Origin: a virus
Reading direction: 5' to 3' (one strand)
Length of the DNA: 64,000 nucleotides
IMG/VR virus record: IMGVR_UViG_3300031452_000003
Span: 866-64,865 of that record
The notes beneath the pieces were generated by a model. That model saw nothing but the letters and a program-made list of their open reading frames with translations, was not told the DNA's origin and searched no databases. This document shows positions 10,173-61,832 of this stretch, piece by piece. The position numbers were made by a program, and so were the translations under genes. Positions within the stretch are counted from its first letter, which is position 1. Every line of letters starts with the position of its first letter.

Positions 10173-12848
10173 CTACTCCCTCGCCCCCGGCTGCCATGTC
10201 GCCCCGGCGTCGAGGGAGTGACCCAGGGCGGCGAAGTCCGTGCCCGCGCTGTCCGAGGCGTAGAGCGTTGCCGCGCCGTCCGCGCAGACGCAGAGCAGGA
10301 GGCGGCCCCCGCGCGCCGTGGCGGCGGCGATGCGGCACGTCTCCCGGTCCACCAGAAGCGGCTGGCCCCCCACGGTGACGCACCCCAGGTCGCCCCATGT
10401 CCGGCCCGCGTCCGGCGTCGCCGCCCAGCCGATGCCGGTCCGCTGCCCCCAGTCCCGCCCCGTCGGGCTGCGCGCGCCGTAGGGGTAGGCGTAGGCGCTG
10501 TTCACCCCGGCGTACTCGGGGTCGGCGTCCGAGTGGAACGCGCCCGCGAGCGTCCTGCCGTCGAAGGCGAACGAGTCGCGGGGGCTGGGCAGGCCCGTCA
10601 GCAGCACCTGGAACAGCGTCAGCGTCCCCTCCTGGTCCGCCCCCCGCGCCCAGCAGATGCCGCCGCCCGAGCCGAACGCCTGGGGCGGGTCGCCCCCATT
10701 AAAGCCCCCGCCGCGCGCGCCGTCCGCGAACGGGTAGCCCGGAACGTGGAGGAGGTCTTCCCGGTACGTCCCCAGCGTCGCCCCCGCGCCCTGCGCCCGG
10801 TTGACGTTCGCGTAAGACTCTTGGAACGAGAGCGCGCGGTCCTTCGAGGCGTAGACCAGGGCGAGGCTCAGGGTGGCGAACGGGGCGACGACCGCGCCGT
10901 AGGGGCCGAGGTCGCCCCGCTCGGCGTAGGCCGGGAGCCGGTTCGCGCCGACCCACATCCCATGAGAAAAGGCGTAGCCCGCCCCGTAGGGGGGCACCGC
11001 GTCCGCGTAGGACACCGACCCGGCGGGCGGCGAGTAGCCGGGGTAGGTCCCGGCGGGGTAGTAGAGCGCGCCCACCTCCCGGCTGACCGCCCAGGGCGGC
11101 GTCCTGCCCGACGCCGCGAAGGCCGCGAACGCAGCGGGCAGGGGTACCCGGTAGCCCGCCGCGTCGGCGAGCAGCGCCTTCTCGCTGCGGCCCGTGCCCG
11201 CGACGAACTGGACGCCGGGGGGCACGTCGGGCACCCGGAACAGGGCGTAGGGCGGGTCGCCGGCCACGGGGTAGATAGAAACCCGCCCGTAGACGACGCC
11301 CCGCGCATCGGCCACGACGAGGAACACCGGGGACGGGAGGGTGCCGCCCGTCTGGACGTCGCCGAAAGCGCCGGGCGTGTAGACCGGCGGCGTCAGTGGG
11401 CCGCCGAGGAGCGCCTCGGCGTCCGCCCGCAGCGGGGGCGTCCCGTCCCGCCACGTCCGCCCGTGGTCGGGCGTGTCCCGCCACCGGAGCCGGCTGACCG
11501 CCGCGTCGCCCCCGCGCTGCGACTCCCGGTCCCACGCCACGTCGGCGCGGGCCGTGCGGAAATTGTGCTCGACCTCGATTCGGGTCAGCCCCTCCTCGGG
11601 CAGCGCGTAGACGCGCGCGGGCAGGCAGAAGTAGCCGGCGGCGAGCGGCACGGACCCGACGTCCGCGCCGGTCGTCCACGGGAGGCGGGTGCCGGCAGGC
11701 TCGACGCCCGACTCCATGTACCGGAGCGGCAGACCCTTGACCCAGGCGAGGTTGTAGTACGCCGCATGGCCCGTGCCGTCGCCGTAGGGGCGCGCGGCGG
11801 AGAAGCCGAGCGGCTGGACCGACCACACCTGCCGGTAGTCCGCCGCCCCGAGGGCGAGCGAGACGCGGCCCGTCACCGGGTCGCAGTCCATCGCGGGCAC
11901 GAGCAGGCGGCGGTCGCGCGTGACGAGGACGGGCGCGGCGCTCGTCGGGTCGTACCCGACAAGCGCCTTGACGGTCATGGCCGCGCTGCCCCCGGCGGTT
12001 CCGGTGAGTCGGAGTGGCCCGACGTTTACACGGACGCCCGCAGTGGAATACCTTGCGAACTGCCCGTCAAACACGTTGTCGCTCAGGTTGTCGGTTCTGT
12101 TAAACACGGCCCGTCCGTAACGGGTCGGGTAGTTCAGCCCCGCGATGGCAGGCTGGAGCGGAGAGCCGGGGCCGCCATTCTGGCCGCGCCGCGTGGCGAG
12201 ATAGTAGTAGCCGCTCTGGGCTGGGGTCAGCGTCACCTGATTCGATTGCGTTCCGGTGGGGGAGGCGGGCGTGTCCGTCCCATCGATAAAAACTACCGTT
12301 CCGCTCTCGTAATAGAGTTGGTAATAGTAATTCTGGGGATTGTAGGGGACGTGGACAAGCACGACGGGGTCGTCCGTGCCCGAAACCGTCCAGCTTATCG
12401 TGACGGACTCGCCCGGCGCGATAAGCTGGACGGCCCCGCCGGGGCCGCCTGCGCCCGCCCGGATGTTTATCCCCAACTCGGGAACCCGGCGGTAGAGGCT
12501 GACGGCCCAAGGGCCGTACTGTCCGGGCGGATAGTTGTAGGCCCGGATGGTGCCGGTGCCCGCCGCCGTCGCGCCGGTCATCATCAGCGAGTAGACGATG
12601 TCGTAGGCGAACGTGACCGTAACGTCGCCGCCCCCGGTCGGCATCGGTACTTGGCTGCCGTCGTCCCCGAGCAGATAGGCCGCGACCTGCGCGGGGTTGA
12701 GCCAGGGGTTGCCGGGGGGTTCGCCGTAGCTGGGGTCCGACGCCGAGTTAGGGAGCCAAGTGACCTTTGCCGTCTCGCCCAGCCGGAGACGGTCGTTTAA
12801 AATCGGTGCCCTGTCTGAATAAAACGCGGCGGCATTGGCGTTTGCCAT
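10173..12848 (-). CDS. Large minor tail protein
   Basis: 891-aa Y/G/P-rich ORF inside the tail operon. Confidence 0.6.
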   Translation of the reverse strand: MANANAAAFYSDRAPILNDRLRLGETAKVTWLPNSASDPSYGEPPGNPWLNPAQVAAYLLGDDGSQVPMPTGGGDVTVTFAYDIVYSLMMTGATAAGTGTIRAYNYPPGQYGPWAVSLYRRVPELGINIRAGAGGPGGAVQLIAPGESVTISWTVSGTDDPVVLVHVPYNPQNYYYQLYYESGTVVFIDGTDTPASPTGTQSNQVTLTPAQSGYYYLATRRGQNGGPGSPLQPAIAGLNYPTRYGRAVFNRTDNLSDNVFDGQFARYSTAGVRVNVGPLRLTGTAGGSAAMTVKALVGYDPTSAAPVLVTRDRRLLVPAMDCDPVTGRVSLALGAADYRQVWSVQPLGFSAARPYGDGTGHAAYYNLAWVKGLPLRYMESGVEPAGTRLPWTTGADVGSVPLAAGYFCLPARVYALPEEGLTRIEVEHNFRTARADVAWDRESQRGGDAAVSRLRWRDTPDHGRTWRDGTPPLRADAEALLGGPLTPPVYTPGAFGDVQTGGTLPSPVFLVVADARGVVYGRVSIYPVAGDPPYALFRVPDVPPGVQFVAGTGRSEKALLADAAGYRVPLPAAFAAFAASGRTPPWAVSREVGALYYPAGTYPGYSPPAGSVSYADAVPPYGAGYAFSHGMWVGANRLPAYAERGDLGPYGAVVAPFATLSLALVYASKDRALSFQESYANVNRAQGAGATLGTYREDLLHVPGYPFADGARGGGFNGGDPPQAFGSGGGICWARGADQEGTLTLFQVLLTGLPSPRDSFAFDGRTLAGAFHSDADPEYAGVNSAYAYPYGARSPTGRDWGQRTGIGWAATPDAGRTWGDLGCVTVGGQPLLVDRETCRIAAATARGGRLLLCVCADGAATLYASDSAGTDFAALGHSLDAGATWQPGARE

Positions 12849-19177: not shown

Positions 19178-22100
19178 CTACCCGTACCATCCTACGGCGG
19201 GGGCACCGGGCGGATGGGCGGCCCCGCCCCGCATCACCTGGGCCGCCCCGTTCACCCCCTGCGTGTTCTGCGTGTGCGCCGCCGACTGGCCCGTGCTCTC
19301 GTTCATTTGCACGACGTTGACCGTGAACCCCTTCCCCATCAGGGACACCAGCGCGGCCAGCGTCGTGTTCAGCCCCCCCAGCACCTCGGGCATGACGCCC
19401 GCCCCCACCCCGCCCTTGTCGATGGAGTCTATCGTCTGACCCGTCCCGCCCACGACAGGCGCGTCCGGGCCGTCGGCGGACGGGAAGTCGCCCGCCCGCA
19501 TTCCGAACGCCATCTTGCCCACTTCAGAGGGCAACACCCCCATCGTCTCCGCGTCCCGGTAGGATTGCCTGTCCGTGTACCCGAACACCCGCGCGCTCAT
19601 CTGACCCAGCCCCCGCTTCTCGGCGATGGACGCCACGCGGTCGGCGGGCGGCATCAGCCGAGACGCGAACGACGGGGCAGACACGCTCATCGCCGTCAGC
19701 CGGTCCACCCAGCCCACGTCCACGCTCTGCTGCCGCTCGAAGATGTCGTTGCGCGTCTCCTCCTGCTGGCCCGTCAGGTTCCGGCGGATGACCGACTTCT
19801 GCTCCCCGGTCAGGTCCTGCCGCGCCATCACCGCCCGCATCTGCGCGTCAATCTGCTTCAGCTTCTCCCCGTCCATCTTGGCGAGCGCGGCGTTCGACTG
19901 CAAGACGCTCCCCGGCTCGAACGGCGACCGCTCCTGCCGCGACAGCCGCGCCTCCGCCCGAATCCGCTTCGTGTCGAAGTCGGGGGCCATCTCCACCCGG
20001 CTGAACGCCTCGATGCCCTGCTGCTCGGCGGAGTTCTTCGCGCGCTGGTAGTCCGCGTCGTAGAGCGCCCGCTGGTCGGGCGAGAGGGCCGTGTCCCGCC
20101 GGTATTTGGCGAGCGCCACGCCCGAGAGGGCTTCGTCGTAGCCCCGCCCCGCCTCCGCCCGCGTCTCGTCGCCCGTCCCCCTGAGCCGGACACCCCGCTC
20201 CTCCCGCGAGTAGGCCGACGACGAGCGGGCCTCCGCCCGGCCCTGGAATCCCGTGATGGCCGTGTCGAGCGCCTGCCGCTGGGCGACGACCGTCTGGGCT
20301 TCGAGGTCCTTTATCTGCGAGGTGAGCTGCATCCGCTGCTGGTACGTCAGGTTCCCCGCCGCGAGCCGGGTGTTCAGCTCGCCGTGCAGGCGGAGCTGTT
20401 CGCCGACGAGCGCGTTCTGGGCGGTCAGCGTGGAGGCGATGTCGCCGGACACCTCGCCGCGCGCCACGCCCACGCGCAGCCCCGCCTGCCGCGCCCCGCT
20501 GCCCTGCACGGCGTCCTGGATGCGGTCCACGGCTTGCCGGTTCTTTATCTCCTTGATTTCGAGCGCCTCGCGGGCCGCCGCCGTCCGCCGCTGCTCCCGC
20601 TCCTCCGGGGAGAGGAAGTTCGACTTGTCGTTCGCCAGGGACAGGTCGTACTTCGCCTGGGCCGCGAGGCGGGCCTGCTGGGCGGCCAGGTTCGCGGCGA
20701 CGGCGGGGTCGTAGGAGTTTAGGCCGCCGAGCGTCAGGGCCTGGCCCTGCGTCTGGGTGCGGGAAAGTCCCCCCTCGAAGGCTGCCTGGTGTTCCGACTG
20801 GCCCTGACGCCACAGGCCGACCTGGGCCTCTTTGAGCTGGGCGTTGTTCTGGGCGAGTTCCAGCCGGACGTGGGCGAGGTCGGCGCGGTACATCCCCTTG
20901 TCGTCGGGGCTGGCTGCGTCCACCGCCTTGACGTACTGCGCCTCGGCGGCCTGGAGCTGCGTCCCCCGCTCGGTGAGCGACGACACCTGCTGCTCAACGA
21001 ACGGCCTCATGCCCGCCGCGCCCCGGCCCGTCGCCTGGGCGAGCGAAACGCCCACGCCCGCGCGGGCGGCGTCGTAGCCCGCCGGCTCCGTGGCCTCCAT
21101 CGCGTCCCGGAGTCCTCGTGCGAGCGAGTCGGTGAGGTCCTTGGCCGAGCCGGACGCTACTTTGTCCTGGCCCGTGTCCACGAGCTTCTTGATGTCGGCG
21201 TCGTTCTCCCGGCGCTGGTTCCAGGCGGCGGTGTGGGGGATTTTCTCCGCGATGTGGTGCATCCAGCCGGAGAAGCCGCCCTCGTTCTCCATCTCGCCCT
21301 TCCACGCCTGCGCCTTCTGCATTGCGGGCGTGTAGTCGAACTGGCCGTTCGCAATCAGGAGCTTGTGCGCCGTGTCCAGGTCGCCGTGCAGGGCGTAGTA
21401 GTTGGCGGCATCGGCGTAGGATTTCTTGTCGGGGGGCCGGTTGCCGGCTATCATGTCCTGGAAGGAGTCGGACATGGGTATCTGCTGGGCCGCCTTCGCC
21501 TGGGCTGCGACGAGTTCCGGGTACAGGTCGCCCGCGCCCCGCTGAAGGGTGGCCTGTAGCCCCGCCGCCTTGACGGGGTTGAAGCCGACGACGGAGGACG
21601 AGAGGGAGCGGAGGGACTGGGCAAGCTCCGCCGCCGGGGTGCCCATGCGCCCCGCCGTCTTCTCGATGGCGTCGGCAAACTGACCCGCCGCCTTCGTACC
21701 CAGGCCCATCACCTGCGAGAAACCCTCGCCCGCCAGCCGCAAATCCTCGTGCTTCTCGGAGAGCGCGGAGAGGGGCGCGACGACGGCAGAGGCGACGCCC
21801 CCCGCGATGGCCGCCCCGGCGAACGGCCCCGCCGGGGTGAACGCGCCCACGACGCCGCCGACCAGGCCCGCCGCCCCCGGTATCAGGCCGAGGCCGGAGC
21901 GGTAGCGGGCCTCCGCCGTGTAGCGGTCGCCGGTCAAGGGCTGGGACAGGTATTCGCCCCCCTCGTGCCCCAAGTTCAGGGCGGCGAAGCCGAGCGCCTC
22001 CGCCCCCCCGCTGGACAGGTGCCCCTTGAAGTTCGCACGGAGACGCCCCACGCCCGTCGCCGTCGCCCGCTCGTACTCCTGTTTGAGCTGCGGGTTCTCG

Positions 22101-22666
22101 CCGGGCATGACCGTCTCGCCCTCTTGGAGCGTCTTCCGCTTCTGGGCGAAGTCGTCCATCGAGACCTTGACGCCGGTTTTGAGCTGTTCCGAGACCCACT
22201 TCCGCAAATCCTTGTGGATGTCTTTGGAGGGGACGGTCTGGAGGTTGCCGACGAACCGCTTGAAGTCTTCCTGCGCCTGGGGGTCGCTGCCGGTGAAGGC
22301 AGCGGCTTTGAGGCTGTCGTACTGGGCGGCGGTGGCCGCCTTCATGTGCGGGGCCTGGGCGGCGAGGTGGTCCATCAGCCCTTGCAGCGACGCCTGCGTC
22401 TTCTGCTGGACCTGGGCGGGGGACTCGCGGTTTTTGAGGTCTTCGACCGCCAGGGCGAGCGTGCCGGGGGTGCCCGCCCCGCCCTTGATGGCCGCGTAGG
22501 ACTGGCCCTGCGCCGCCGTCATCTTCCCCAGCGATTCGAGCTTCTTCAGTTCCGCCGAGATGTCGTCAACGGCCTTCTTGGCGGCCTCGTACTCGGGCAG
22601 GATGGTGGAGTCCACCTGCCGCTGCAAGGCTGTGATTTTCTTCACGAGGTCGTCGCTGATTGCCAT
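19178..22666 (-). CDS. Tape measure protein
   Basis: About 1160 aa, Ala/Gln-rich and helical, with a Gly/Ala-rich hydrophobic segment. Downstream of the tail chaperone. Confidence 0.85.
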   Translation of the reverse strand: MAISDDLVKKITALQRQVDSTILPEYEAAKKAVDDISAELKKLESLGKMTAAQGQSYAAIKGGAGTPGTLALAVEDLKNRESPAQVQQKTQASLQGLMDHLAAQAPHMKAATAAQYDSLKAAAFTGSDPQAQEDFKRFVGNLQTVPSKDIHKDLRKWVSEQLKTGVKVSMDDFAQKRKTLQEGETVMPGENPQLKQEYERATATGVGRLRANFKGHLSSGGAEALGFAALNLGHEGGEYLSQPLTGDRYTAEARYRSGLGLIPGAAGLVGGVVGAFTPAGPFAGAAIAGGVASAVVAPLSALSEKHEDLRLAGEGFSQVMGLGTKAAGQFADAIEKTAGRMGTPAAELAQSLRSLSSSVVGFNPVKAAGLQATLQRGAGDLYPELVAAQAKAAQQIPMSDSFQDMIAGNRPPDKKSYADAANYYALHGDLDTAHKLLIANGQFDYTPAMQKAQAWKGEMENEGGFSGWMHHIAEKIPHTAAWNQRRENDADIKKLVDTGQDKVASGSAKDLTDSLARGLRDAMEATEPAGYDAARAGVGVSLAQATGRGAAGMRPFVEQQVSSLTERGTQLQAAEAQYVKAVDAASPDDKGMYRADLAHVRLELAQNNAQLKEAQVGLWRQGQSEHQAAFEGGLSRTQTQGQALTLGGLNSYDPAVAANLAAQQARLAAQAKYDLSLANDKSNFLSPEEREQRRTAAAREALEIKEIKNRQAVDRIQDAVQGSGARQAGLRVGVARGEVSGDIASTLTAQNALVGEQLRLHGELNTRLAAGNLTYQQRMQLTSQIKDLEAQTVVAQRQALDTAITGFQGRAEARSSSAYSREERGVRLRGTGDETRAEAGRGYDEALSGVALAKYRRDTALSPDQRALYDADYQRAKNSAEQQGIEAFSRVEMAPDFDTKRIRAEARLSRQERSPFEPGSVLQSNAALAKMDGEKLKQIDAQMRAVMARQDLTGEQKSVIRRNLTGQQEETRNDIFERQQSVDVGWVDRLTAMSVSAPSFASRLMPPADRVASIAEKRGLGQMSARVFGYTDRQSYRDAETMGVLPSEVGKMAFGMRAGDFPSADGPDAPVVGGTGQTIDSIDKGGVGAGVMPEVLGGLNTTLAALVSLMGKGFTVNVVQMNESTGQSAAHTQNTQGVNGAAQVMRGGAAHPPGAPAVGWYG

Positions 22667-22682
22667 GAAAACACCCCGCCTC

Positions 22683-22714
22683 ATAGTGTGCGGGGCGGGG
22701 GGCGTGACGCAAGA
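22683..22714 (-). promoter_or_regulatory. Late-type promoter, copy 3 (tape measure)
   Basis: TCTTGCGTCAC-N15-CACTAT. Confidence 0.7.
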
Positions 22715-22772
22715 AAAGGGCGCTGCATCGTGCAGCGCCCTTTGACAAGACCAAGGGTTTAGGGCCGAGGGT

Positions 22773-23501
22773 TTAGGGTTCGGCGGGCCGTTCCGCGTGT
22801 GTTGTCAGGACGCGCAGGTTTTCCAGACCGAATCCCTGATAGTCCTTCTTGATATAGGAAACGTCAACAGCATGGGGGCCGCGAATGTAGAAGTGCTCCA
22901 TGCCCGCCTTTGTGGCCGGGTCGTCCAGCAGCCCATTCCAGAGTTTGAGCGCTTGGTATAAGTAGACGTTGCAGTTGTCCAGCCCGGCGCGGGCCTGGAT
23001 GGCCGCCGCCCCTGCCTTGTCGAGCAGCTCGACTGCGACCTCTTCCGCCGCTGGCGAGCCGGGCATCGCGGCAATCGCCCCGTTCCGCCAGTAGCCGACG
23101 GTCTGGACTTCCTTCGCCTGCTTCTTATAGCCCCTCGCCAGTTCTGCATTCGCGTCAAAGGCGTCTGCCGCGTCCTGGGCCTCACCGATTTTGTTGTTGT
23201 AGTCCATCACCCTCGCTTTCAGGTCTGCCGAGGGCGCATCTGGGACAATGGTGACAGGAGTAGGAACGACGGGGATGGAGACGGAAGTGGGCGGAGCCGC
23301 TGTGGCAATCACTGGCGGCGCGGCCAGCAGGGTGGAGGGCAGAACGACAGCCACCGCAGGCTTGTTTGCAGACTTATTCGCAAGCTTCTTCGCCTGCCGC
23401 AACGCCCGGTGGTGCTTGTCGGCATGGCGGCGGGCAGCCTCCGCGCTAGGGCAGAGCGCGACGGAGCAGATAAGAGCAATGACAATGATGAATCGGTACA
23501 A
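22773..23501 (-). CDS. Secreted or periplasmic hypothetical protein
   Basis: AGGAGG RBS, TTG start, signal-peptide-like MYRFIIVIALICSVALCPSAEA. Confidence 0.65.
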   Translation of the reverse strand: MYRFIIVIALICSVALCPSAEAARRHADKHHRALRQAKKLANKSANKPAVAVVLPSTLLAAPPVIATAAPPTSVSIPVVPTPVTIVPDAPSADLKARVMDYNNKIGEAQDAADAFDANAELARGYKKQAKEVQTVGYWRNGAIAAMPGSPAAEEVAVELLDKAGAAAIQARAGLDNCNVYLYQALKLWNGLLDDPATKAGMEHFYIRGPHAVDVSYIKKDYQGFGLENLRVLTTHAERPAEP

Positions 23502-23553
23502 AGGTATGGTTCCTCCTTTTTGCTCCGGCTTTTTGATTGAGAAACCGCCCGCG

Positions 23554-23703
23554 TCAGTTCGCACGGGGGGCATTGACGACGGAGGCGTCCAGGAGCACCC
23601 ACGCCATCGTCAGGAGGACGAGAACCCCGAGTCCACAGATGAGGGCGAACGCCCACGACCAAGCGCGGTCGCTGAAGGGGCTGGGTGTCTGCGCCATGTC
23701 CAT
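23554..23703 (-). CDS. Small single-pass membrane protein
   Basis: WSWAFALICGLGVLVLLTMAWVLL. Confidence 0.5.
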   Translation of the reverse strand: MDMAQTPSPFSDRAWSWAFALICGLGVLVLLTMAWVLLDASVVNAPRAN

Positions 23704-23812
23704 ACTTCTTTCCTGTTCACTTCCTCTGACACGAGTATACCAAGCAATTTCCGCGCTGAATAGCGAACATAGAGCAAACATATGGGGATTGTTCCAATCT
23801 AACTCCCATAGT

Positions 23813-24040
23813 TCACTCCTCACGGGCCTTCCGGCTTTTAGAGCGCAACGGTCTTCCGGTCCGCTTCTCTCCCATTGGTTGCGTCCGCGTCTTGTAGGCT
23901 TCCAAGTCAGACCGGGCTATCAGCCGTTTCCCATATTTGACCGTGCAGGGCAACCTCCCCTCATAGATAGCAATCCTTACTGACCCCTGGCTAATTCCAA
24001 GTTCTCCTGCGGCTTCCCGAACCGTCAACAAGTCTTCCAT
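23813..24040 (-). CDS. Excisionase/MerR-like HTH protein
   Basis: LLTVREAAGELGISQGSVRIAIYEGRLP. Confidence 0.8.
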   Translation of the reverse strand: MEDLLTVREAAGELGISQGSVRIAIYEGRLPCTVKYGKRLIARSDLEAYKTRTQPMGEKRTGRPLRSKSRKAREE

Positions 24041-24256
24041 AAGCCCCTCCGTAGTTTCTGACACCATAGTACCAGGAAAGTTGCCTAAACGATGACTTTA
24101 TCCGAGTAAATAAAACGGTTTAAGATGTCGGAAAGTAGTTGAAACGATGGTTTTATGGGGTAAAGTGAATATGTAAACAGAGAAGCGACGCGGGAGAGAA
24201 ATCTGACCTTCCCTCCCGCGCCCGTCGTGACCAAGCCGCTTAGGAGGCGGCGAAGT

Positions 24257-24475
24257 ATGAACATTCTACCCCAAGCGGCCCCCGAAAGGGCTGCCGCGCT
24301 CCCGCCCTGCGCCGAAACCGACACTCCCCCCGGAACCTGCCCCAACTGCGGCTGCTCCATTGCCTACGTCAACCTGTACGTGGGCGGTAGAGGCTACAAG
24401 ACCTATCGGCTCTGCCAGGGCGACGCAGGCACCGGCTACCTCGGCTGCGGCTTTATGTGCCGGGAGGGGAGCTGA
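24257..24475 (+). CDS. Zn-ribbon protein, paralog of 61180..61449
   Basis: GTCPNCG...YVGGRGY...C...C versus GVCPQCG...YVGGKGY...C...C. Confidence 0.7.
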   Translation: MNILPQAAPERAAALPPCAETDTPPGTCPNCGCSIAYVNLYVGGRGYKTYRLCQGDAGTGYLGCGFMCREGS

Positions 24476-24774
24476 TGCCCACCTCCAAAAATACTCCCCC
24501 CGAGGACACCCAGCCGGAGCCTTTGCCCCTCCCCGTCCCCGGCAGCATCATCGCAAATGTCGGCTTCATGGAGGCAGTCGCCGCCTTATCGGAAGCCGAG
24601 ACGTATCTGGCCGCGTTCGGCCCGTGCGACCCCGCCTACCGGCCTCTGGAATGCCGGAGGGACGAGGCCGTCGCGGAACTGGCGGCGATGGTGGACCACT
24701 ACATCTGGCGGCGCGTGTCGGCGGCGCTGGGGGCCACCGAGCGGATGCGGACCGAGAAGGAGGTTTCACTATGA
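24475..24774 (+). CDS. Hypothetical protein
   Basis: ATG overlaps the upstream TGA. Coupled operon. Confidence 0.6.
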   Translation: MPTSKNTPPEDTQPEPLPLPVPGSIIANVGFMEAVAALSEAETYLAAFGPCDPAYRPLECRRDEAVAELAAMVDHYIWRRVSAALGATERMRTEKEVSL

Positions 24775-25025
24775 CCCGACTCCGCGCCTGCACAGGCGGC
24801 TCCCCGAACGACTTTATCGGCGTTAATTATTGGGACGGGCCGCACTGCCGGGGAAGGCGGCAGGTGCTCCTGTTCCGCTTCCGCGAGGATTGGGGCGCGT
24901 GGCGGGCGATGGCCTGCGCGGACGGCCACGGGAACAAGAAGGCGCTGCGGGGAAGCGCCTTCTCCCAGGGCGGGCGGGGCGACTGGAAGAGGCGGCGAGC
25001 CGAGAAGGAGGTCGGGAATGTCTGA
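24771..25025 (+). CDS. Hypothetical protein
   Basis: ATGA overlap and GGAGG RBS. Confidence 0.55.
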   Translation: MTRLRACTGGSPNDFIGVNYWDGPHCRGRRQVLLFRFREDWGAWRAMACADGHGNKKALRGSAFSQGGRGDWKRRRAEKEVGNV

Positions 25026-25700
25026 AAGGAAGTCGAGAATGTCTGAGAAGTCTATTCGAGTGCCAATGAGCGTCCTTGCCCGCAAGGACTTGTCGTCCAC
25101 CGCCAAACTGCTCTACGGGCTGGTGCTGGCCCTATCCGAGGAAACGGGCTGCTGCTGGGAGACGAACGCCTATCTGGGCGAGTGCTTGGGGTCTGAGCCG
25201 ACGTATATGTCAGCCCTCATTGGCACTCTCGAACGGGGCGGCTTGATTAGAAGGGAGGTTTACAAGTGGGGGGCCGAGCGCCGACTGTATCCTCTCCCCC
25301 CAACCCCGGCGGGGCGGGAGTAGGGGGCGCAGAAATTGCGCCTGTAGGGGGCGCAGCGGTTGCGCCCCCTCAGAAATTGAGGGGGCGCAACCGCTGCGCC
25401 CACAACAAACAAATACAATACAGACCCCCCTAACCCCCAAAGGGGGTGTGGTGGGGGGGAAGTCATTCATCCCGAGGAAAGCAAGGAAGGCGCGGTAGCG
25501 CCTGTCAGAAGTCCTTGCCGTCCAGAGCAAAGACTTTAGCGAAGACCTGAGCAGGGACCGGAGCCGGGGAAAGCCGGGGCGGGCGTGTGACCACGCCCCC
25601 GCCGGGTTCACGGCGTTCTGGGAGGTCTACCCCCGCCGAGTCGCCCGCCTCGCCGCTGTCCGCGCCTGGAACGCCCTGCGCCCCGGACGCCCCTGCGTTA
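25018..25700 (+). pseudogene. Broken phage replication initiator: winged-HTH ORF 25018..25323, iteron/hairpin, and an out-of-frame C-terminal domain
   Basis: KDLSSTAKLLYGLVLALSEETGCCWETNAYLGECLG is an initiator-type wHTH. GFTAFWEVYPRRVARLAAVRAWN follows in another frame after stops. Confidence 0.75.
25349..25401. repeat. Perfect 24-bp inverted repeat with 5-nt loop
   Basis: GGGCGCAGCGGTTGCGCCCCCTCA-GAAAT-TGAGGGGGCGCAACCGCTGCGCCC. Confidence 0.95.
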
Positions 25701-26047
25701 AATGCCCCGCACAGGGGCCGCAAACGGCCTTCTCTCACCCATTCCCGCGCGAGGGCCATAGGCGGCCTGTGCGGGGCGTCTAGGGGCCTTTACGGGGCTT
25801 CGTAGGCCGGGCGATGAAATCGGTTCGCAGTGCGGGGGCTGAAACGGCGGGTGTTCGCTGCCCCGCCCCGCTTTTGTAAACCCCGCGACGCCTCTATGCT
25901 TGTCCTACAACCACCCCGAATAAAGGTTGGCGTGGAGACAGCTTGGCGGCACGACTCCACGCCCTTCCCAGCCCCCGCAAAGGAACCAGAAAATGGCGAA
26001 ACTTAAAATGGCGAAACTTATGCCGCCTACTGCGTCGGCAGCAGGGC

Positions 26048-26300
26048 CTACTGCGCCGACAGTCGCGCGAGGAACGCCTCCTCCTGGTCGCGCTGCCGGT
26101 CGTTGCGCTCCCCCCGGATGCCCGACGCGACGGCCTCGACCGCCATCCACAGCAGGAGGGGCTGGTCGCGCAGTCCGCCCGCGCAAGGCAGGGCGTGGTG
26201 GTCGAGCCAGGCCGCCGCCTCCCGCCACGGCACGTAGGGCACCGTCTCCGGGCGCAGGCCCAGGCCGCCGCCGAGCCTGCGCCCGGCCCCTACAAAAAAG
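26048..26300 (-). CDS. Tail assembly chaperone -1 frameshift extension (GT form)
   Basis: The -1 frame stays open after T TTT TTG and encodes LPCAGGLRDQPLLLWMA. Confidence 0.7.
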
Positions 26301-26829
26301 CCCTCACGTCCTGGGTCAGCGTCACGCGGTCCACGACCGCCCGCATGACGTAGAGCGCCGCCGCCGTCCACAGCTCGGAAAACGACGCGAAACCGGGGTA
26401 GTCGGTTTTGAGCAGCGTCCGCGTCGCCAGTTCGCGCGCATACACGAGTTCGCTGCGGGGCAGGGACTTGACCGCCTCGGCCTCCGCCGCCTCGTGGTCG
26501 GCGACGGTCGCCACCCGGAAGCGGAACTCGTAGGTCACGTACTCGCCGCCCCGCTTCGCTTCGAGCTGCTGGAACAGGGCGACCTCCTGCTCTTCGGCGG
26601 CGGCCAGGCGCGCGAGGGCGTCCTCCCCCTGCTTCGGGTCGTCGGCGGCATAGGCGACGTAGGCGGCGTCGCGGCGCTCGGCGTAGCGGGCGCGCGTCTC
26701 GGTTTCGGTCTCGATGAGCAGCGAGCGGGCCGGGCCGCGCAGAAGGCGGACCGGGACGGCGAACTCGTCGGTGGTGACGGGCTGCGCGGTGTCGGGGACG
26801 CCGGGCGGCGTCGGGGGTTTGGCGGACAT
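26290..26829 (-). CDS. Tail assembly chaperone (G form)
   Basis: Follows the tail tube gene and ends at slippery GCT TTT TTG TAG. Confidence 0.75.
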   Translation of the reverse strand: MSAKPPTPPGVPDTAQPVTTDEFAVPVRLLRGPARSLLIETETETRARYAERRDAAYVAYAADDPKQGEDALARLAAAEEQEVALFQQLEAKRGGEYVTYEFRFRVATVADHEAAEAEAVKSLPRSELVYARELATRTLLKTDYPGFASFSELWTAAALYVMRAVVDRVTLTQDVRAFL

Positions 26830-26854
26830 GGTGTTCCCTCCTCATGGGTGGGGG

Positions 26855-26886
26855 ATTGTGGGCCGGGCGGGGTGCGTGACGCAAGA
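26855..26886 (-). promoter_or_regulatory. Late-type promoter, copy 4 (tail chaperone)
   Basis: TCTTGCGTCAC-N15-CACAAT. Confidence 0.75.
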
Positions 26887-26928
26887 AAAGGGAGACGCAA
26901 GATTAGGGATAAATCGCCTAGCGATGAC

Positions 26929-26957
26929 TTGACATCGCCGCGCGAGTTTGGTATAGT
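26929..26957 (+). promoter_or_regulatory. Sigma70 promoter nearly identical to 17553-17581
   Basis: TTGACA TCGCCGCGCGAGTTTGG TATAGT. Confidence 0.75.
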
Positions 26958-26978
26958 GTGTGTGCACAGTCGGTCCTC

Positions 26979-27019
26979 GCCCCCAAACTGGTGAATACAG
27001 TTTGGGGGCTTTTTCTTTT
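26979..27019 (+). terminator. Intrinsic terminator (plus strand)
   Basis: Perfect 12-bp stem GCCCCCAAACTG/CAGTTTGGGGGC followed by TTTTTCTTTT. Confidence 0.8.
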
Positions 27020-27034
27020 CGGGAGGCGGCCCAA

Positions 27035-27925
27035 CTACTGAACGGTGAGTCCGGGCGTAACCCCATCGACGCTCTGGCCGATGACGGTGAACGACTGAGA
27101 CGCGCGCCGGGGACGTTTCTCAAGGTTGTCGGGCTGGTTGATGCGTGGGTTCGGCAGCGTGAACGTGACGGGGACGCCGGGCGCACCCGAGACCGTGGGG
27201 GGCGTGATGGTGAAGACAATCGGGACGCCCATCTGGGGGTAAGTGCCCGCCGCGTCCACGACCAGCGTGAGCGTGAACCGCGGCTTGCCCGCGTTTATCT
27301 CAACGACCCCCGTGCCCGTTCCGTCGCCGCAAATGGGGGTGGGCTGGCAGGCGGTGTCGACGGACAGGGAGAGGTCCACGACGCCCGAGACGCCCGAGAT
27401 GACCACGAGGTTCGACCAGGAGGCGCGCTTGCCGGGGGGCGGCGTGACCGCCGCCCAGGGCACGGGCAGGTAGCCCGCCCCCATGATGCCGAGGTTCGCC
27501 CGGATGATGTCTCCCTGCCGCGTGGACACGGACAGCATCGCCCCTTTCGCCTTCGTGAGCTGAATCGCCCGGAAGCCGTCGGAGAACACCGGGTCGCCAG
27601 CTATCTGGTTCAGGTCGTCGTAGCCGCGCTCGCCGCGCGTCGGGTCGCGGTAGAGGAACAGGGAGTTCAGGTTGGCGGCGGTGAACCAGGACGCCATCAC
27701 GTCCACAGGCATCCGCACGGTCGGGTAGTACAGGCCGTCGTAATAAGAGTAGTCGTAGACGTTGTTGGCCGCGCCCGGCACGTCGAGGTACTTGTCCGGG
27801 AACTGGACGCCCGCGCCCTCCTGGATGGGGTAGACGAGCAGGTTGGTGTTCGCCGTATTCCCGGTGGTGAAGTAGCCCCGGTCCGAGCGGTACAGCCCGT
27901 AGATGTTGCCCGACGTGTCTGCCAT
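27035..27925 (-). CDS. Major tail tube protein
   Basis: About 296 aa, beta-rich, positioned before the chaperone and tape measure. Confidence 0.7.
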   Translation of the reverse strand: MADTSGNIYGLYRSDRGYFTTGNTANTNLLVYPIQEGAGVQFPDKYLDVPGAANNVYDYSYYDGLYYPTVRMPVDVMASWFTAANLNSLFLYRDPTRGERGYDDLNQIAGDPVFSDGFRAIQLTKAKGAMLSVSTRQGDIIRANLGIMGAGYLPVPWAAVTPPPGKRASWSNLVVISGVSGVVDLSLSVDTACQPTPICGDGTGTGVVEINAGKPRFTLTLVVDAAGTYPQMGVPIVFTITPPTVSGAPGVPVTFTLPNPRINQPDNLEKRPRRASQSFTVIGQSVDGVTPGLTVQ

Positions 27926-27960
27926 AAAATCAAGCAAGGGGACTGTTTGCTTTAGCTGAC

Positions 27961-29253
27961 AGGTGAATTGCTTCCTGTCTGCCGAAGGCTCTGTATCCCC
28001 ACCTTTCGTTTAGAATAATGCTTGCAAAAACGCGCAAACATATGGTATAATAGAAGCATGGACAGAACGTTGCGGCTGCCTCTAAATCCCACAACGGAGC
28101 AGGCTGAATACCTACTGGAAACGATGCGTCAATTTACGCAATCGTTCAATCTTGTCTGTGCCGAGGGCTGGCGTCTCAAAGAAGGCAACGCCTATACTCT
28201 GCACCGCCTGACCTACCGTGATAGCAAAGCCCTTTGCCCCAAACTCGTCTCTGACCTGCACGTTCAGGCACGGCAAAAAGGCGCCGAAGCCGTCAAGTCT
28301 GCTATCTCGCTTGCCAAGAAGGGGCGTAAGGTAGGCTCTCCTAATTCCTCGCTCTGCCCGCCGCGCTACAACTGTAACTCCTTCTCCGTGGACTGGCAGA
28401 AGGGCTTGGCTAACCTTGCCACTGTCTGCGGACGGCAGAAGATAGCGTTCACTGTTCCTGCTTATGCGCGTGAACTTATTGACAATAGGGTTGCCACGGC
28501 TGACCTTATGTACCGCAAAGGCAGGTTCACGCTCCACGTCGTTCTGAAACTTGACGACGTGGAGTTCATGGACACGAGGCAAGCCATCGGAGTTGACCTC
28601 GGCGTGTGCCGCCCTGCTGTCACCAGCGACGGGCGGCTGCACGGTCAAAAACGCTGGCGCGAAGTCAGCAAAAGGCGTTTCCGCCTCAAAAGGAAACTCC
28701 AATCCAATGGCTCTAAGAGTGCCAGACGGCATCTTAGAAGCCTCGCGGGACGCGAGATGCGTTTCCGACGGGATTGCGACCACGTTCTCAGCAAGAGCAT
28801 TCTGCAAGGCATCGCGGCGGGCACAACCGTCGTTGTTGAAAACCTCACAAACATTCGGGCGCGAGTTAAAGCGCGGCGCGGCGCGGCGAAACGGCGGCTC
28901 CATTCGTGGTCGTTCGCCCAACTCCGCTCGTTCTTGGAATACAAGGGCGAAGCCCTCGGTTGCCGAGTGCAGGGAATAGACCCGCGCCACACAAGCCAGC
29001 GGTGCGCGGCTTGCGGGCATATCTACCGAGGCAATCGCCCGTCCCAGTCTCGGTTTGTGTGTCGTTCGTGTGGTCATCGTGCCAATGCTGACAAGAACGC
29101 GGCGGTGAACATTCGTGATAAACACCTTGTCGGTTGGTCTTCACCTTCCGACGCGGCTCCGTCAGAAGCCGTATCGTCTCAGACACGCGATTGCCAAGCG
29201 CAGTCGCTATCGGTCTAGGGACAAGCCGCCCTCTTTAGGGGGCGGTATCTGAC
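27961..29253 (+). mobile_element. IS200/IS605-family element, tnpB-only
   Basis: tnpB with subterminal hairpin CCGCCCTCTTTAGGGGGCGG ending in TCTGAC. TGAC lies immediately left of the inferred left end. Ends are inferred. Confidence 0.75.
28058..29218 (+). CDS. tnpB: TnpB RNA-guided endonuclease
   Basis: IGVDLG (RuvC-I), VVENL (RuvC-II), CAACG/CRSCG Zn ribbon, ADKNAAVNI (RuvC-III). The D-E-D triad is intact. Confidence 0.95.
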   Translation: MDRTLRLPLNPTTEQAEYLLETMRQFTQSFNLVCAEGWRLKEGNAYTLHRLTYRDSKALCPKLVSDLHVQARQKGAEAVKSAISLAKKGRKVGSPNSSLCPPRYNCNSFSVDWQKGLANLATVCGRQKIAFTVPAYARELIDNRVATADLMYRKGRFTLHVVLKLDDVEFMDTRQAIGVDLGVCRPAVTSDGRLHGQKRWREVSKRRFRLKRKLQSNGSKSARRHLRSLAGREMRFRRDCDHVLSKSILQGIAAGTTVVVENLTNIRARVKARRGAAKRRLHSWSFAQLRSFLEYKGEALGCRVQGIDPRHTSQRCAACGHIYRGNRPSQSRFVCRSCGHRANADKNAAVNIRDKHLVGWSSPSDAAPSEAVSSQTRDCQAQSLSV

Positions 29254-37881: not shown

Positions 37882-38438
37882 GGGTGGTTAGCGGGCGAGG
37901 CGGGCGGGATAGGAGGCGGGCGGGATAGGAGGCGGGCGGGATAGGAGGCGGGCGGGATAGGAGCCGTGCCGGCGTCCAAGGCGGCCTCGGCCTCGGCGTG
38001 ATAGGCATCCCGCGCCCGCTCCGCGCGCTGGGCGGCTTGGACGATGTGAGTCAGGCGGATGCCCGTGCGCGGCCCGCCCGCCGCCCGCACGGCGGCCTCC
38101 TGCGCGCGGTACTGGCCCGCCAGCCGGTGCATCCGGTCGGCGCAGGCGAGCAGGAACACGGCGCGGAGGTGGTTCCCGTCCCCCCGCGCCGCGCGCCCGG
38201 CGATGTCCGCCGCCCTGCCCTCGGGCGAGGCTTGAGACCCGCCTTGCGCGTCCTTACGCTCACCTGGCGAGTGAACCGAAGCAGCCGAAGGCGATGCCCC
38301 TGGCGTCGCGGTCGGGATAAGTTCAGGCGTCGAGATGAGTTCAGTCGTTGGGACGGGTTCAGTCGTTGGGACGGGTTCAGTCGTTGGGACGGGTTCAGTC
38401 GGACTTGGCGTCACAGTCTTGTGTTTCGGCGTCGTCAA
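37878..38438 (-). CDS. Hypothetical protein with PTTEPV repeats
   Basis: In-frame 18-nt repeat. Stop overlaps the MuF start. Confidence 0.5.
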   Translation of the reverse strand: MTTPKHKTVTPSPTEPVPTTEPVPTTEPVPTTELISTPELIPTATPGASPSAASVHSPGERKDAQGGSQASPEGRAADIAGRAARGDGNHLRAVFLLACADRMHRLAGQYRAQEAAVRAAGGPRTGIRLTHIVQAAQRAERARDAYHAEAEAALDAGTAPIPPASYPARLLSRPPPIPPASPANHP

Positions 38439-38853
38439 ATATGCCCTCTTTTCCGACCGGCCCGAACGGCAGAAGGGGGTTCTTCCGCGTGGGCAGCGCG
38501 TAGAGCGCCCGTCCGCCGAGGAATCCCGCCTCCGTCCTCCGCATCGTCGCCCACACGTCCATGTAAGCCGCGTCTTTGTCGCCCTGCCCCGGCGTGGCGT
38601 GGATGGCCGACTTGAAGTTCTCGTAGGTGACGGTGCCCGCGAGCGCCGACACCACCGCCCCCAGCTCCTCGGGGCCGATGACCAGCCGCGCCGGGTAGTC
38701 CCCGTCAGGGGTCATAATCACCGGCTGGGCCAGCCCAACCCGCGCCCGCAGGTTCTCCAGGTCCTTCGCCGCCCGCGAGCGCACTTGGAAGTTGCCGCTC
38801 CCGTCCTTGTCCCGCACCACGCTGTAAAACCCGTCCGTCGTCATCAGCCACAT
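38395..38853 (-). CDS. Conserved hypothetical protein
   Basis: MWLMTTDGFYSVV...VRSR...DLE...DY...YENFK...YMDVW. I recall this family also occurring N-terminal to Nudix domains; not verified. Confidence 0.65.
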   Translation of the reverse strand: MWLMTTDGFYSVVRDKDGSGNFQVRSRAAKDLENLRARVGLAQPVIMTPDGDYPARLVIGPEELGAVVSALAGTVTYENFKSAIHATPGQGDKDAAYMDVWATMRRTEAGFLGGRALYALPTRKNPLLPFGPVGKEGIFDDAETQDCDAKSD

Positions 38854-58624: not shown

Positions 58625-60085
58625 TCACGGCTTGTCCAGGAACAGGGCGAAACGCTCCATGAAGTCGAGGCGAACGGTGCCCTGGGGGCCGTTCCGGTGC
58701 TTGCGGAAGATGAGTTCGGCGGGCACCGGAACGGGCAGGGGGGCGAAGCCGTCCGTCTCGAAGGGCGCGGACTTGTCGCCGAACACATCCTCGCGGTAGA
58801 GGAAGGCCACGATGTCCGCGTCCTGCTCTATCTGCCCCGTCTCACGGATGTCGGCGAGGTCCGGGCGTTTGTCGGCGCGCAGGGTGCTCGCGCGGTTGAG
58901 CTGCGAGAGGGCGATGAGCGGCACGTCGAACTCCCGCGCCAGCCCCTTCAGCTCGATGCTCACCTCGGTCAGCTCCTGCAAACGGTCCCGCGTGGGCCGG
59001 TCGGCGCGCATGAGCTGCAAATAGTCCACGCCAATCAGGCCCAGCCCCCCGTGACGGCGGGCGAACTTGCGGGCCTCAGCGCGCATATAGGCCGGGGTCG
59101 CGCCGCTCCGGTCGTTCACCTCCAGCGGGATGCCGTAAAGCCACGACGCCGTGTGGATGTAGCGGTCGTACTCGTCCGGCTGCATCCTGCCGGACCGGAG
59201 CCGGTGGTTGTCGAGCCGCGCCTCGGAGCAGACGACGCGCAGCATGACCTCCTCCTGGCTCATCTCCATCGAGAACAGCAGGACGGGGACGCCCTGACGC
59301 GCGACGTGGGCGCAGATGCCCGTCAGCAGGGCCGACTTCCCCACGCCCGGCCTCGCGCCGATGACCAGGAAGTTCGGGGCCTGGAGTCCGTTGGTCATCC
59401 GGTCCACGGCGGCAAGCCCCGTCGTCAGCCCGAGCATCGCGCGCGGGTCCTCGGCCCGGCGCTCGATTTTCTCCGTCAGCTCCCACAGGATGTCGCGGGC
59501 CGAGCGGGACTGCGGCGAGTCAGGGAGCGGTGCGCGCGCCGTCAGGGCGTCGAGCATCGCCGCTAGGTCCTCGACGCCCGCGCCCCGCGCCGACGCCTCC
59601 ACCACGGACACCGCGCCCTCGGCCATGCGCCGCCGCTCCGCCGCCGCCCGGACCCGCCGGGCATACTCGGGGGCCATGACCTGCGCGGCGTCGAACGTGA
59701 CGACGGAGAGCACATAGGCCCGGCCCCCGCAGTCGGCGAGGCGGCCCGACGTTTCGGCGTCTTCAATCAGCACAAGCCAGTCCAGCAGCGGCCCGCGTGA
59801 CGACGACTCGGCCAGCAGTGAGAACAGGGCCGCGTGGTGGGGGCGGGCGAAGTCTCCCGGCACCATCTCCTGCGCCCACCGCTCGCGCTCCTCGGGCCAG
59901 ACGACCATGCAGGCGAGCAGGGCGGCCTCGGATTCCAGGGCCGAGGGCGGGGAGTAGGCCGCGAGCGGGCCGTAGTCCACCGGGCCGTAGTCCTGAGTCC
60001 GGCAGTCCTGCATCCGCAGGGAGGGCGGGCGCGTCGGGCGGGGGCTATCAGAGGCGCGGGCATCACCGGGGGCAGAGTTGTTCAC
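58625..60085 (-). CDS. dnaB: Replicative DNA helicase, DnaB family
   Basis: GARPGVGKS, FSMEM, GVDYLQL, LSQLNR and DLADIRETGQIEQDAD. Confidence 0.97.
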   Translation of the reverse strand: MNNSAPGDARASDSPRPTRPPSLRMQDCRTQDYGPVDYGPLAAYSPPSALESEAALLACMVVWPEERERWAQEMVPGDFARPHHAALFSLLAESSSRGPLLDWLVLIEDAETSGRLADCGGRAYVLSVVTFDAAQVMAPEYARRVRAAAERRRMAEGAVSVVEASARGAGVEDLAAMLDALTARAPLPDSPQSRSARDILWELTEKIERRAEDPRAMLGLTTGLAAVDRMTNGLQAPNFLVIGARPGVGKSALLTGICAHVARQGVPVLLFSMEMSQEEVMLRVVCSEARLDNHRLRSGRMQPDEYDRYIHTASWLYGIPLEVNDRSGATPAYMRAEARKFARRHGGLGLIGVDYLQLMRADRPTRDRLQELTEVSIELKGLAREFDVPLIALSQLNRASTLRADKRPDLADIRETGQIEQDADIVAFLYREDVFGDKSAPFETDGFAPLPVPVPAELIFRKHRNGPQGTVRLDFMERFALFLDKP

Positions 60086-61179: not shown

Positions 61180-61449
61180 TCATCCGACTCGGTGGTAGGC
61201 GCAGGTGGGGGCCGTCCCTAGGCTCTCCCAGCACTCGATTCGGCGCAGGTAGCCCTTCCCGCCCACGTAGTAGATATTGGAGACCAGTTCGCCGCCGCAC
61301 TGGGGGCACACCCCGCGCACCCAGTCCGGGTGGGGCCGGTCGGGCGGGGGGCTGGGCAGCGCGCCCCTGGCCTCATCCACCGTGGCCGCCTCGATGACGC
61401 CGTTCATTGGAGCTATTCGCCTGCCCACGGGGGCTGTAGGGCCGCTCAT
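61180..61449 (-). CDS. Zn-ribbon protein
   Basis: CPQC...YVGGKGY...C...C. Confidence 0.65.
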   Translation of the reverse strand: MSGPTAPVGRRIAPMNGVIEAATVDEARGALPSPPPDRPHPDWVRGVCPQCGGELVSNIYYVGGKGYLRRIECWESLGTAPTCAYHRVG

Positions 61450-61832
61450 GGTTGCCCCCCGAGTTCTGCTTCCCACGACGTCAGGGTCGCGTCGAGTGCC
61501 GGCAGGAGGTCAATCAGCCTCCCTGCCCGGTGCGCGCGCAGCACGATGGCCGTCCATCGCGCGTACAGCGATGCGGCCAAGGTGGAGCCGCTCGGGCAGA
61601 GCGCCGTAACCGGATACGCCCCACTCTGCAATAGCCGCCTGTTCATGGCCGGGAGGTTCATGCCAAGCTCCGCCGCGAGGGACGTTATCGACTCGCCCCA
61701 TACCGTGCGATGGGCAAGCCCCGTGAGTTCGTCCGAGGTGAAAACCGGCGGGGCCACCGGCCTTGACTGCCCCGCCGCGTCCTTCCGTCTGCCCGTTCGC
61801 GGTCCCGCCCTCTGCGCCGTCGCTGTTGACAT
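61446..61832 (-). CDS. Cro-like HTH protein
   Basis: SITSLAAELGMNLPAMNRRL. First gene of the early leftward operon, divergent from the repressor. Confidence 0.6.
   Translation of the reverse strand: MSTATAQRAGPRTGRRKDAAGQSRPVAPPVFTSDELTGLAHRTVWGESITSLAAELGMNLPAMNRRLLQSGAYPVTALCPSGSTLAASLYARWTAIVLRAHRAGRLIDLLPALDATLTSWEAELGGQP

Follow-up and report, generated by a model that had tools for sequence, protein, structure and literature searches.

The tail operon of a phage recovered from rock metagenomes contains the pieces of a second replication module, and the locus raises the question of whether these pieces are debris or still serve the phage. The stretch that we analyzed (the window) is 64,000 nt long and corresponds to bases 866-64865 of the 75,311-bp IMG/VR record IMGVR_UViG_3300031452_000003. 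The pieces lie in an insert of 3.36 kb (~22685-26047) between the gene for the G/GT tail chaperone and the presumed tape-measure gene. An original prediction, made from the letters of the window and their open reading frames (ORFs), described here an inverted, broken module that shares near-identical DNA with the phage's own initiator gene, and it proposed either a remnant kept similar by recombination or a decoy origin with a truncated initiator. We find that the insert is a real, inherited 3.4-kb mosaic with a half-dead foreign replication/early cassette. Comparison with a sister lineage showed that the distal, dead part of this cassette drifts and that the promoter-proximal operon, including an ORF for a winged helix-turn-helix (wHTH) domain only, is maintained. 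As to function, we judge it an evenly balanced proposition that the resident initiator has a second docking site in the array of origin-type repeats (iterons) of the cassette, where the wHTH-only protein might act as a modulator.

The insert and its replication cassette

The elements listed in the original prediction are all in place: a divergent helix-turn-helix (HTH) gene, a paralogue of the resident Zn-ribbon gene, two genes for hypothetical proteins (the first and second orphan) and a wHTH ORF that stops at 25323. The module lies inside the tail operon, between chaperone and tape measure, as had been claimed, and its GC content points to the foreign origin, from a donor phage or a satellite, that had been proposed, the insert having a GC fraction of 0.45-0.66 against ~0.70 elsewhere. 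A 45-nt late-promoter repeat flanks the insert, with one copy on either side. Almost all of the phage genes are on the minus strand; the cassette holds a plus-strand operon of four genes with strong Shine-Dalgarno sites and overlapping stop and start codons.

The last gene of this operon, the wHTH ORF, resembles the DNA-binding part of a replication initiator. AlphaFold2 (AF2) predicts it confidently as a winged helix (H-H-H plus a beta wing) with a predicted local distance difference test score (pLDDT) of 88.9, for which the best Foldseek matches are the N-terminal domains of RepA initiators (4PQL, 4PT7 and 5KBJ; E 1.3e-4, template modeling (TM) score 0.71). Approximately 1250 distant homologues (1249) align over residues 15-95, and these are mostly the N-termini of proteins of 150-450 amino acids (aa). 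Model, Foldseek matches and homologue alignment agree on a complete winged-helix domain; the Pfam family HTH_36 is matched with 18.3 bits, below its gathering score of 25. A homodimer model reached an ipSAE of 0.76 versus 0.00 for the best control, with runs agreeing in at least 97% of contacts and a partner pLDDT of at least 81. Of proteins solved as one-chain pairs, 20 of 30 reached the mark that it passed; of those solved as single chains, 1 of 23 did. The model supports pairing of the wHTH protein; like dimers have been solved, so the pass may reflect likeness to these.

The stop codon of the ORF, a TAG at 25321-25323, falls inside the first iteron (GTAGGG…), and beyond it lies the wreck of an initiator gene. 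The prediction had held its parts to be out of frame, and three-frame translation agreed: the wHTH domain, the repeat linker (GVGGAEIAPVGGAAVAPP) and the C-domain (…FTAFWEVYPRRVARLAAVRAWNAL) are in three different frames, and the C-domain contains an in-frame TAG. Homology to the resident initiator stops near 25680-25690, with ~100 C-terminal codons missing. No continuous ORF joins the DNA-binding domain to the C-domain in 25018-25690, and the gene is broken likewise in the sister lineage. One homologue, P0005, consists of a wHTH, a repeat linker and 'FEKFWNVYPRKVAKATAYKKW…FLGPGRRWEDY', which is the same FWxxYPR…RWED C-domain as in the resident initiator. Formerly, then, the module gene was an ordinary full-length initiator with an N-domain of another type.

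The resident initiator is encoded in a leftward early region that runs from a CI-type repressor (Peptidase_S24) through a 128-aa gene, the Zn-ribbon gene and the 314-aa initiator to DnaB. Its N-terminus is a Phage_rep_O winged helix (PF04492, 36.9 bits versus a cut-off of 28.7); against TIGR01610 it scores 25.4 bits, under the cut-off of 45.5. The resident iterons (60637-60688) are two perfect 24-nt repeats inside the coding linker, where they encode VGGAKIAP twice, and they are followed within that linker by a stretch of 49% GC. Repeats and AT-richer stretch thus place the origin inside the gene, as in lambda and SPP1, and the adjacent helicase completes the layout of an O-type initiator with an intragenic origin. 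As the prediction stated, the N-terminal wHTH of the module is unlike that of the resident: BLASTP between the two detects zero similarity, and only a weak profile match is obtained (hhalign E 0.0077).

The iterons of the module are nevertheless those of the resident initiator. The motif GGCGCA-N5-TGCGCC occurs in the whole 75-kb contig only at 25326, 25350, 25384, 60641 and 60665, so the predicted match between the two arrays is confined to these two loci; with up to one mismatch there are 6 matches versus 1.0 expected. Farther along, 25549-25679 is the reverse complement of 60390-60520, 93.9% identical over 131 nt without a gap, and a gapped alignment of 25317-25722 with 60343-60691 reaches 75% identity in 349 columns and contains an in-frame insertion of 24 nt at 25536-25559. 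The inverted near-identical DNA and its insertion had both been described correctly.

The same cassette is found in other assemblies. Logan contigs from runs of different studies (X1, X3 and X4) tile the module with 0 differences. In a further run, X5, there is a diverged variant, of which a 2899-nt contig spans 22692-25652 and links the 266-aa gene of the insert to the module. The X5 variant was also obtained in a metagenome scan as a 15.6-kb contig, L006, which is collinear from the tape measure to the head genes and has the same insertion site; its lineage is ~9% diverged from the window phage. The scan also gave L007, a short contig that crosses the shared repeat into the chaperone gene, and L008, which holds the variant's resident replication region. 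Because independent assemblies have the same flanks, the module is inherited DNA at a fixed site. No insert-free variant was present among the contig joints in the sequencing runs. Contig joints with 20-24 letters on one side (e.g., 22784 to 26600, 24488 to 25632, 20615 to 27767) were disregarded because they are taken to be cross-matches from other organisms.

Maintenance, decay and recombination in two lineages

The sister lineage separates what is kept (the operon, the wHTH ORF and the iteron half-sites) from what is decaying (the C-domain). The ribosome-binding sites and stop/start overlaps of the operon are conserved between the window and L006. In the Zn-ribbon gene, counted from a GTG at 24227, 3 changes are synonymous and a single one, which lies upstream of the ATG, is non-synonymous. 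The first orphan has a sole homologue, the L006 allele (95% identical), and none outside the clade; its first 88 codons contain 4 synonymous and 1 non-synonymous changes (ratio of non-synonymous to synonymous rates, omega, 0.08). Taken together, these two genes have 7 synonymous to 2 non-synonymous changes (p 0.0014), which indicates purifying selection. The second orphan (7 to 10, omega 0.43) gives a value that is not significant. For the wHTH ORF, the counts are 10 to 11 (omega 0.34, p 0.02), and the two lineages share the TAG and differ by an in-frame 6-nt indel.

Past the TAG the picture changes. L006 carries indels of +1, -3, -12, -15 and -1 and its open frames are not those of the window, so the distal part has ceased to code. 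Intact iteron half-sites are retained in L006. The proposed pair of truncated initiator and decoy origin thus appears to stand in its proximal half, where the wHTH ORF keeps its stop and its frame under constraint, the upstream genes are selected and the half-sites persist, and to fail in the C-domain, which is dead. Neutral decay, named beforehand as what would count against a function, is seen only in the distal C-domain with its lineage-specific indels.

We note that iterons 2 and 3 (window 25344-25401, L006:3120-3180) are exact reverse complements of each other. Their spacers, GCGGT and ACCGC, are exchanged in L006 and the center is not inverted, which suggests a templated exchange between the palindrome arms.

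The DNA shared with the resident gene was examined in a four-sequence alignment of the module and the resident copy from each of the two lineages. All 40 sites that separate module from resident are outside 25510-25685, 18 of them in the 146 scored columns to the left (25317-25509). The core, 137 columns, has no fixed module-versus-resident difference (0/137 versus 18/146; Fisher p 5e-6). It contains one site at which each module copy matches its presumed own resident, the remainder being lineage-specific singletons, and the paralogues are 95.0% alike there, compared with 91.4% and 93.3% for the orthologues. Because fixed paralogue differences are absent and paralogues are as similar as orthologues, the alignment indicates that the core was homogenized with a resident-type allele, by recombination or gene conversion, at or shortly before the split of the two lineages. 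The linker of the resident gene is hypervariable (85% between the residents of the two lineages), which makes allelic mosaicism plausible. The earlier claim that recombination has upheld the similarity agrees with this pattern.

The regulator side of the cassette has been exchanged. In L006 a segment of ~514 nt (L006:1479-1992) replaces ~570 nt of the window (23645-24215), that is, the HTH gene and both control regions. The replacement carries an unrelated 77-aa ORF, a near-consensus sigma70 promoter (TTGCAC-17-TATAAT) facing the operon and a GTCCTA-N5-TAGGAC palindrome. This swap resembles an immunity-region exchange. Host-like genes occur at the right end of the record, outside the window at 65-75 kb (e.g., a 678-aa DXS-like ORF at contig 71780-73816); the record is therefore a prophage with host flank. 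Its repressor might control the module, as suggested by a 12/13 match at 24101-24113 to the half-site of a 31-nt palindromic operator (61933-61963) that adjoins the resident repressor gene. This half-site has five matches with at most 2 mismatches in the window versus 0.10 expected. The match in the module is a half-site only, of imperfect symmetry, and the L006 cassette has a different palindrome. Words of the GTCCTAGAAA type are not enriched (4 versus 1.7 expected).

A proposed second docking site and its alternatives

The cassette thus first encoded a full initiator, with an N-terminal wHTH, an iteron-bearing linker and a C-domain with the FWxxYPR motif. That gene is now interrupted by the TAG in the first iteron and by a second stop, its frame changes twice and its 3' part is deleted. 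Its tract from the iterons to the C-domain is of resident type and was copied or converted from a resident-type allele. We propose that the array and its AT-rich neighbor most likely form a second docking site for the resident O-type initiator, acting as an auxiliary origin or as a replication-fork barrier, as proposed for SPP1 oriR. Transcription of the plus-strand operon would continue across the array. As a dimer, the wHTH-only protein may have a modulating or competing role at origins, which is the least certain step. It is because the iterons match the resident origin, and not the foreign wHTH, that the array likely serves the resident initiator.

Several observations weigh against this proposal. 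The selection tests rest on 9-21 substitutions and two diverged lineages only. The spacers of the module iterons (GAAAT, GCGGT, ACCGC) differ from the A-tract spacer of the resident, so the resident protein may not bind the module iterons equally. Conservation of the iterons between lineages (94%) is no higher than the neutral expectation (synonymous divergence, dS, 0.05-0.16). A decayed fragment nearby (25744-25811) argues that the region accumulates junk. Finally, a single acquisition from an unsampled resident-type allele would fit the identity pattern of the core as well as repeated conversion does.

The closest precedent for a second docking site, which the original prediction did not name, is the pair of origins in SPP1. 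There, gp38 binds to oriL, located within gene 38 itself, and to oriR, located in a segment with morons that breaks up the late genes; the stalling of forks at oriR has been proposed to trigger the theta-to-sigma replication switch (PMC6316719, PMC3485210). In both phages the primary repeats and an AT-rich unwinding element would lie inside the initiator gene, and a second, similarly built repeat/AT-rich site lies far off in the late structural region. In both, the segment with this second site holds morons, is bracketed by transcription signals and interrupts the virion gene order. The sequence layout of an SPP1-type dual origin, in which the initiator gene and a remote site among the late genes share one repeat type and each have an AT-rich element, is thus present. 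Unlike oriR, the candidate second site here lies in the corpse of a foreign-type initiator whose wHTH is open and selected, with a Zn-ribbon paralogue and a regulator upstream; it is inverted relative to the primary site; and it is at the GT/tape-measure junction rather than in the head region.

A comparable arrangement may exist in the Dhillonvirus coliphage HK578 (JQ086375), in which GCGGGACA has 15 occurrences versus 2.0 expected. Five copies are in the 394-nt chaperone/tape-measure gap (11149-11381) and seven follow the large replication gene (38382-38484), so that origin-type repeats at the junction seem to be paired with a second cluster by the replication gene. HK578 differs in that its gap is ~390 nt of non-coding DNA without genes and its initiator is a large primase-helicase-like protein, not an O-type one. 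The window case would then be a further, unrelated, high-GC instance of a second origin-like array in a tail operon, adding to the recurrent use of the chaperone/tape-measure junction. Its new feature is that the array is still in the wreck of a second initiator gene with the DNA-binding half open, which gives a concrete, testable route for the birth of late-region second initiator sites.

The alternative that survives best, although we consider it somewhat unlikely, is that the locus is purely a recombination scar: a fragment of the early region of a related phage or a satellite landed with the morons, the iterons, wHTH ORF and C-domain are without a role, and the small upstream genes persist for some other reason or have yet to decay. 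The repeated breakage of the initiator, the lineage-specific indels in its distal part, the second decayed gene fragment that adjoins it and the orphan genes without homologues outside the clade all suit a scar. So do the iteron divergence, which is compatible with neutrality, and the modest evidence of selection on the wHTH (p 0.02). However, a scar does not readily explain the purifying selection on the Zn-ribbon gene and first orphan, nor a wHTH ORF that keeps its stop, an in-frame indel, its ribosome-binding site and its translational coupling after ~9% divergence. The regulator/promoter cassette was moreover exchanged for one with a strong sigma70-like promoter rather than lost. Unrelated phages, too, have second iteron arrays at this junction, and SPP1 has one in its late region.

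A more elaborate reading, which we offer as doubtful, would make the locus an evolutionary intermediate toward second origins of the SPP1 oriR type. A foreign initiator with its embedded origin would have been captured at the GT/tape-measure junction, the origin tract converted to resident specificity and the coding sequence left to decay, with the wHTH kept as a trans-acting regulator or competitor-blocker under a swappable control cassette.

Less probable again is an exclusion or incompatibility device, in which the wHTH-only protein would be a dominant-negative origin binder directed at phages or satellites with its cognate origin and/or the array would titrate the initiator of superinfecting relatives, protecting the lysogen or phage. 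Such a device would make use of a complete, dimer-capable origin-binding domain that has no helicase-recruiting C-domain, and it would fit the divergent regulator and promoter that are swapped between lineages like an immunity cassette, as well as the location in a moron island beside genes for secreted and membrane proteins. If active, the wHTH-only protein would represent a naturally truncated initiator that serves regulation or competition between phages. A precedent is the Odn protein of phage ICP1, in which a stand-alone RepA_N-like domain carried by the phage mimics the initiator of a parasite (PMC8263062). Against a device of this kind, no nuclease or other effector domain is present, the wHTH is not fused to a nuclease, and PADLOC gives zero family matches beyond the HTH. 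The adjacent iterons are of the resident's type and are not assigned to the wHTH. A single-copy array in a prophage would also titrate poorly. In plasmid P1, an extra iteron cluster (incA) bound by the same initiator lowers initiation by titration and handcuffing; the module likewise holds extra iterons that resemble those of the resident initiator in sequence.

The satellites known as phage-inducible chromosomal island (PICI)-like elements (PLE) bear on which protein the array serves. In PLE the RepA_N domain covaries with the iterons, and the C-domain is shared between alleles and recombines (PMC8263062). The wHTH model is closest to the iteron-binding N-domains of such RepA_N initiators of plasmids and PLE (4PQL/5KBJ), and the dead gene, like repA of PLE, combines one type of N-domain with a C-domain that different alleles have in common, the gene having recombined internally. 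Unlike in PLE, the adjacent iterons match the resident initiator, which argues that, in function, the origin tract goes with the resident protein. That protein recalls lambda O in its Phage_rep_O N-domain, its iterons and AT-rich stretch in the linker and the helicase gene directly downstream. It differs from O in having only two perfect iterons and in being followed by a phage-encoded DnaB helicase instead of a P-type loader; in lambda, with its single origin, there is no second array.

The original prediction had also raised the possibility that the inverted 131-nt repeats invert the ~35 kb between them and give two genome isomers, which is now very improbable. The repeats are indeed inverted and 94-95% identical, and late promoters repeated before each gene block might make an inversion tolerable. 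However, both lineages are collinear across both repeats and no inversion was seen in them; the sole joint of opposite strands (25679 to 25811) is explained by a resident-locus contig that aligned to the module, and 131 nt at 94% identity is a poor substrate for recombination. Least credible of all is an assembly chimera or mis-join through the 131-nt repeat: contigs do break at the repeat (gap 25593-25626 in X1), but contigs from four runs and two independent assemblies agree, the X5 contig and L006 crossing the whole module with the same flanks and L007 crossing the repeat into the chaperone gene.

Features of the insert and its surroundings

The features of both loci are collected in Table 1. 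The flanks of the insert are those of a tail operon. At the right edge, the heptamer T TTT TTG lies three codons before the stop of a 179-aa gene and is kept in L006, and the 80-codon -1 extension encodes a nearly identical protein in L006 despite a DNA difference of ~7% (omega 0.12, strong purifying selection). The slippery heptamer and conserved -1 extension upstream of the tape measure identify the 179-aa gene as a canonical G/GT tail assembly chaperone. At the left edge, the 1168-aa gene that starts at 22684 is taken as the tape measure by size and position only, with zero family matches.

Table 1. Features of the insert in the tail operon and of the resident replication region (window coordinates)
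Feature	Position	Strand	Evidence and remarks
45-nt late-promoter repeat copy, left insert edge	22683..22727	-	directly upstream of tape-measure start (22684); direct repeat D1 with 26855-26899, 84% identity, spacing 4172
266-aa protein gene, N-terminal hydrophobic signal-like segment, moron in insert	22773..23573	-	ORF; in L006 with omega 0.40
Possible 49-aa membrane-protein ORF overlapping start of 266-aa gene	23554..23703	-	ORF and predicted hydrophobic helix in window and L006 translations
Divergent 84-aa HTH_17/excisionase-family gene	23813..24067	-	Pfam PF12728 E 2.2e-10; TIGR01764 29.1 bits versus cut-off 28.8
AT-rich divergent control region, candidate	24068..24256	+	promoter-like TTGAAA-16-TAAAGT 24139-24166; hairpin 24187-24222; AGGAGG ribosome-binding site
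72-aa Zn-ribbon protein gene	24257..24475	+	paralogue of resident 61180-61476 product; BLASTP 39% over 38 aa, E 2e-6
99-aa first orphan gene	24475..24774	+	start coupled to preceding stop (TGATG)
84-aa second orphan gene	24771..25025	+	ATGA overlap coupling; AAGGAGG ribosome-binding site
101-aa winged-helix ORF, complete N-terminal origin-binding domain type	25018..25323	+	PHROG 270 'replication initiation protein' E 3.7e-7
Three resident-type iterons	25320-25342, 25344-25366, inverted 25380-25401	+	iterons 2 and 3 form a palindrome with 30-nt arms
AT-rich stretch, candidate DNA-unwinding element	25402..25436	+	43% GC versus 70% GC genome; identical in L006; same arrangement in resident gene
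Dead linker and C-domain of second initiator	25324..25690	+	two frame changes, TAG ~25499, 24-nt insertion 25536-25559, near-identical core 25549-25679
Decayed copy of 3' end of resident gene 58066-58551 (gene after dnaB)	25744..25811	-	84-85% identical to 58101-58168, direct orientation; pointing toward dead initiator
Tail chaperone G (26290-26829) and -1 frameshift extension T to 26048; right insert edge	26048..26829	-	slippery T TTT TTG 26293-26299
Resident DnaB-type helicase	58625..60085	-	Pfam DnaB_C E 1.2e-78; directly after initiator; no counterpart in module
Resident O-type initiator, intact, 314 aa	60082..61026	-	Pfam Phage_rep_O E 5.4e-9; PHROG 270 E 2e-20
Resident Zn-ribbon gene	61180..61476	-	upstream of initiator

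On the minus strand of the insert, the 266-aa and 49-aa ORFs are candidate lysogenic-conversion or exclusion morons. The 266-aa protein has zero matches in Pfam, PHROG, PADLOC and NCBIfam. The C-terminus of the 49-aa ORF is conserved in L006, and its N-terminus is within the swapped cassette. The decayed 68-nt fragment has a stop in its translation and occurs in L006 and L007 too. Of satellite features (PICI/P4-like), the insert has a divergent HTH of the excisionase type and, next to iterons, a rep-like wHTH; an integrase and a packaging gene were not found in the 3.4-kb insert. In PADLOC the HTH gene matches only generic HTH-containing models, and the other seven cassette proteins have zero matches.

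Relatives of the insert were sought in several collections. A blastn search of 22700-26900 against GenBank phages gave zero matches; in IMG/VR, scans found zero relatives for the wHTH, for the resident initiator, for the 179-aa chaperone and for the first orphan; and tblastx of the insert against the contig found nothing beyond the nucleotide matches. A scan of genome contigs with the wHTH gave zero matches, and the same scan with the resident initiator gave just a 44% N-domain match, in an Armatimonadota metagenome-assembled genome, and an unrelated 39% match; the former is a weak hint at the host. Two database hits were rejected. For the first orphan, the ESM Atlas search returned generic helical look-alikes only, and an Rfam match to MIR1858 at 25293-25459 (33 bits versus a gathering score of 137) is spurious and arises because the iterons are palindromic.

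Other differences between the lineages lie outside the cassette proper. In the non-coding stretch from the module to the chaperone extension, L006 has 134 extra nt (L006:3670-3803) between window 25919 and 25920. In the resident early region of the sister lineage, an extra ORF of ~240 nt (L008:8872-9111) lies between the 128-aa gene and the Zn-ribbon gene, so the early region is mosaic too. Finally, L006 joins 27925 straight to 29254 and lacks the 1,328-nt opposite-strand block at window 27926-29253; this block is therefore a recent insertion in the window phage, and its empty site can be read in L006.

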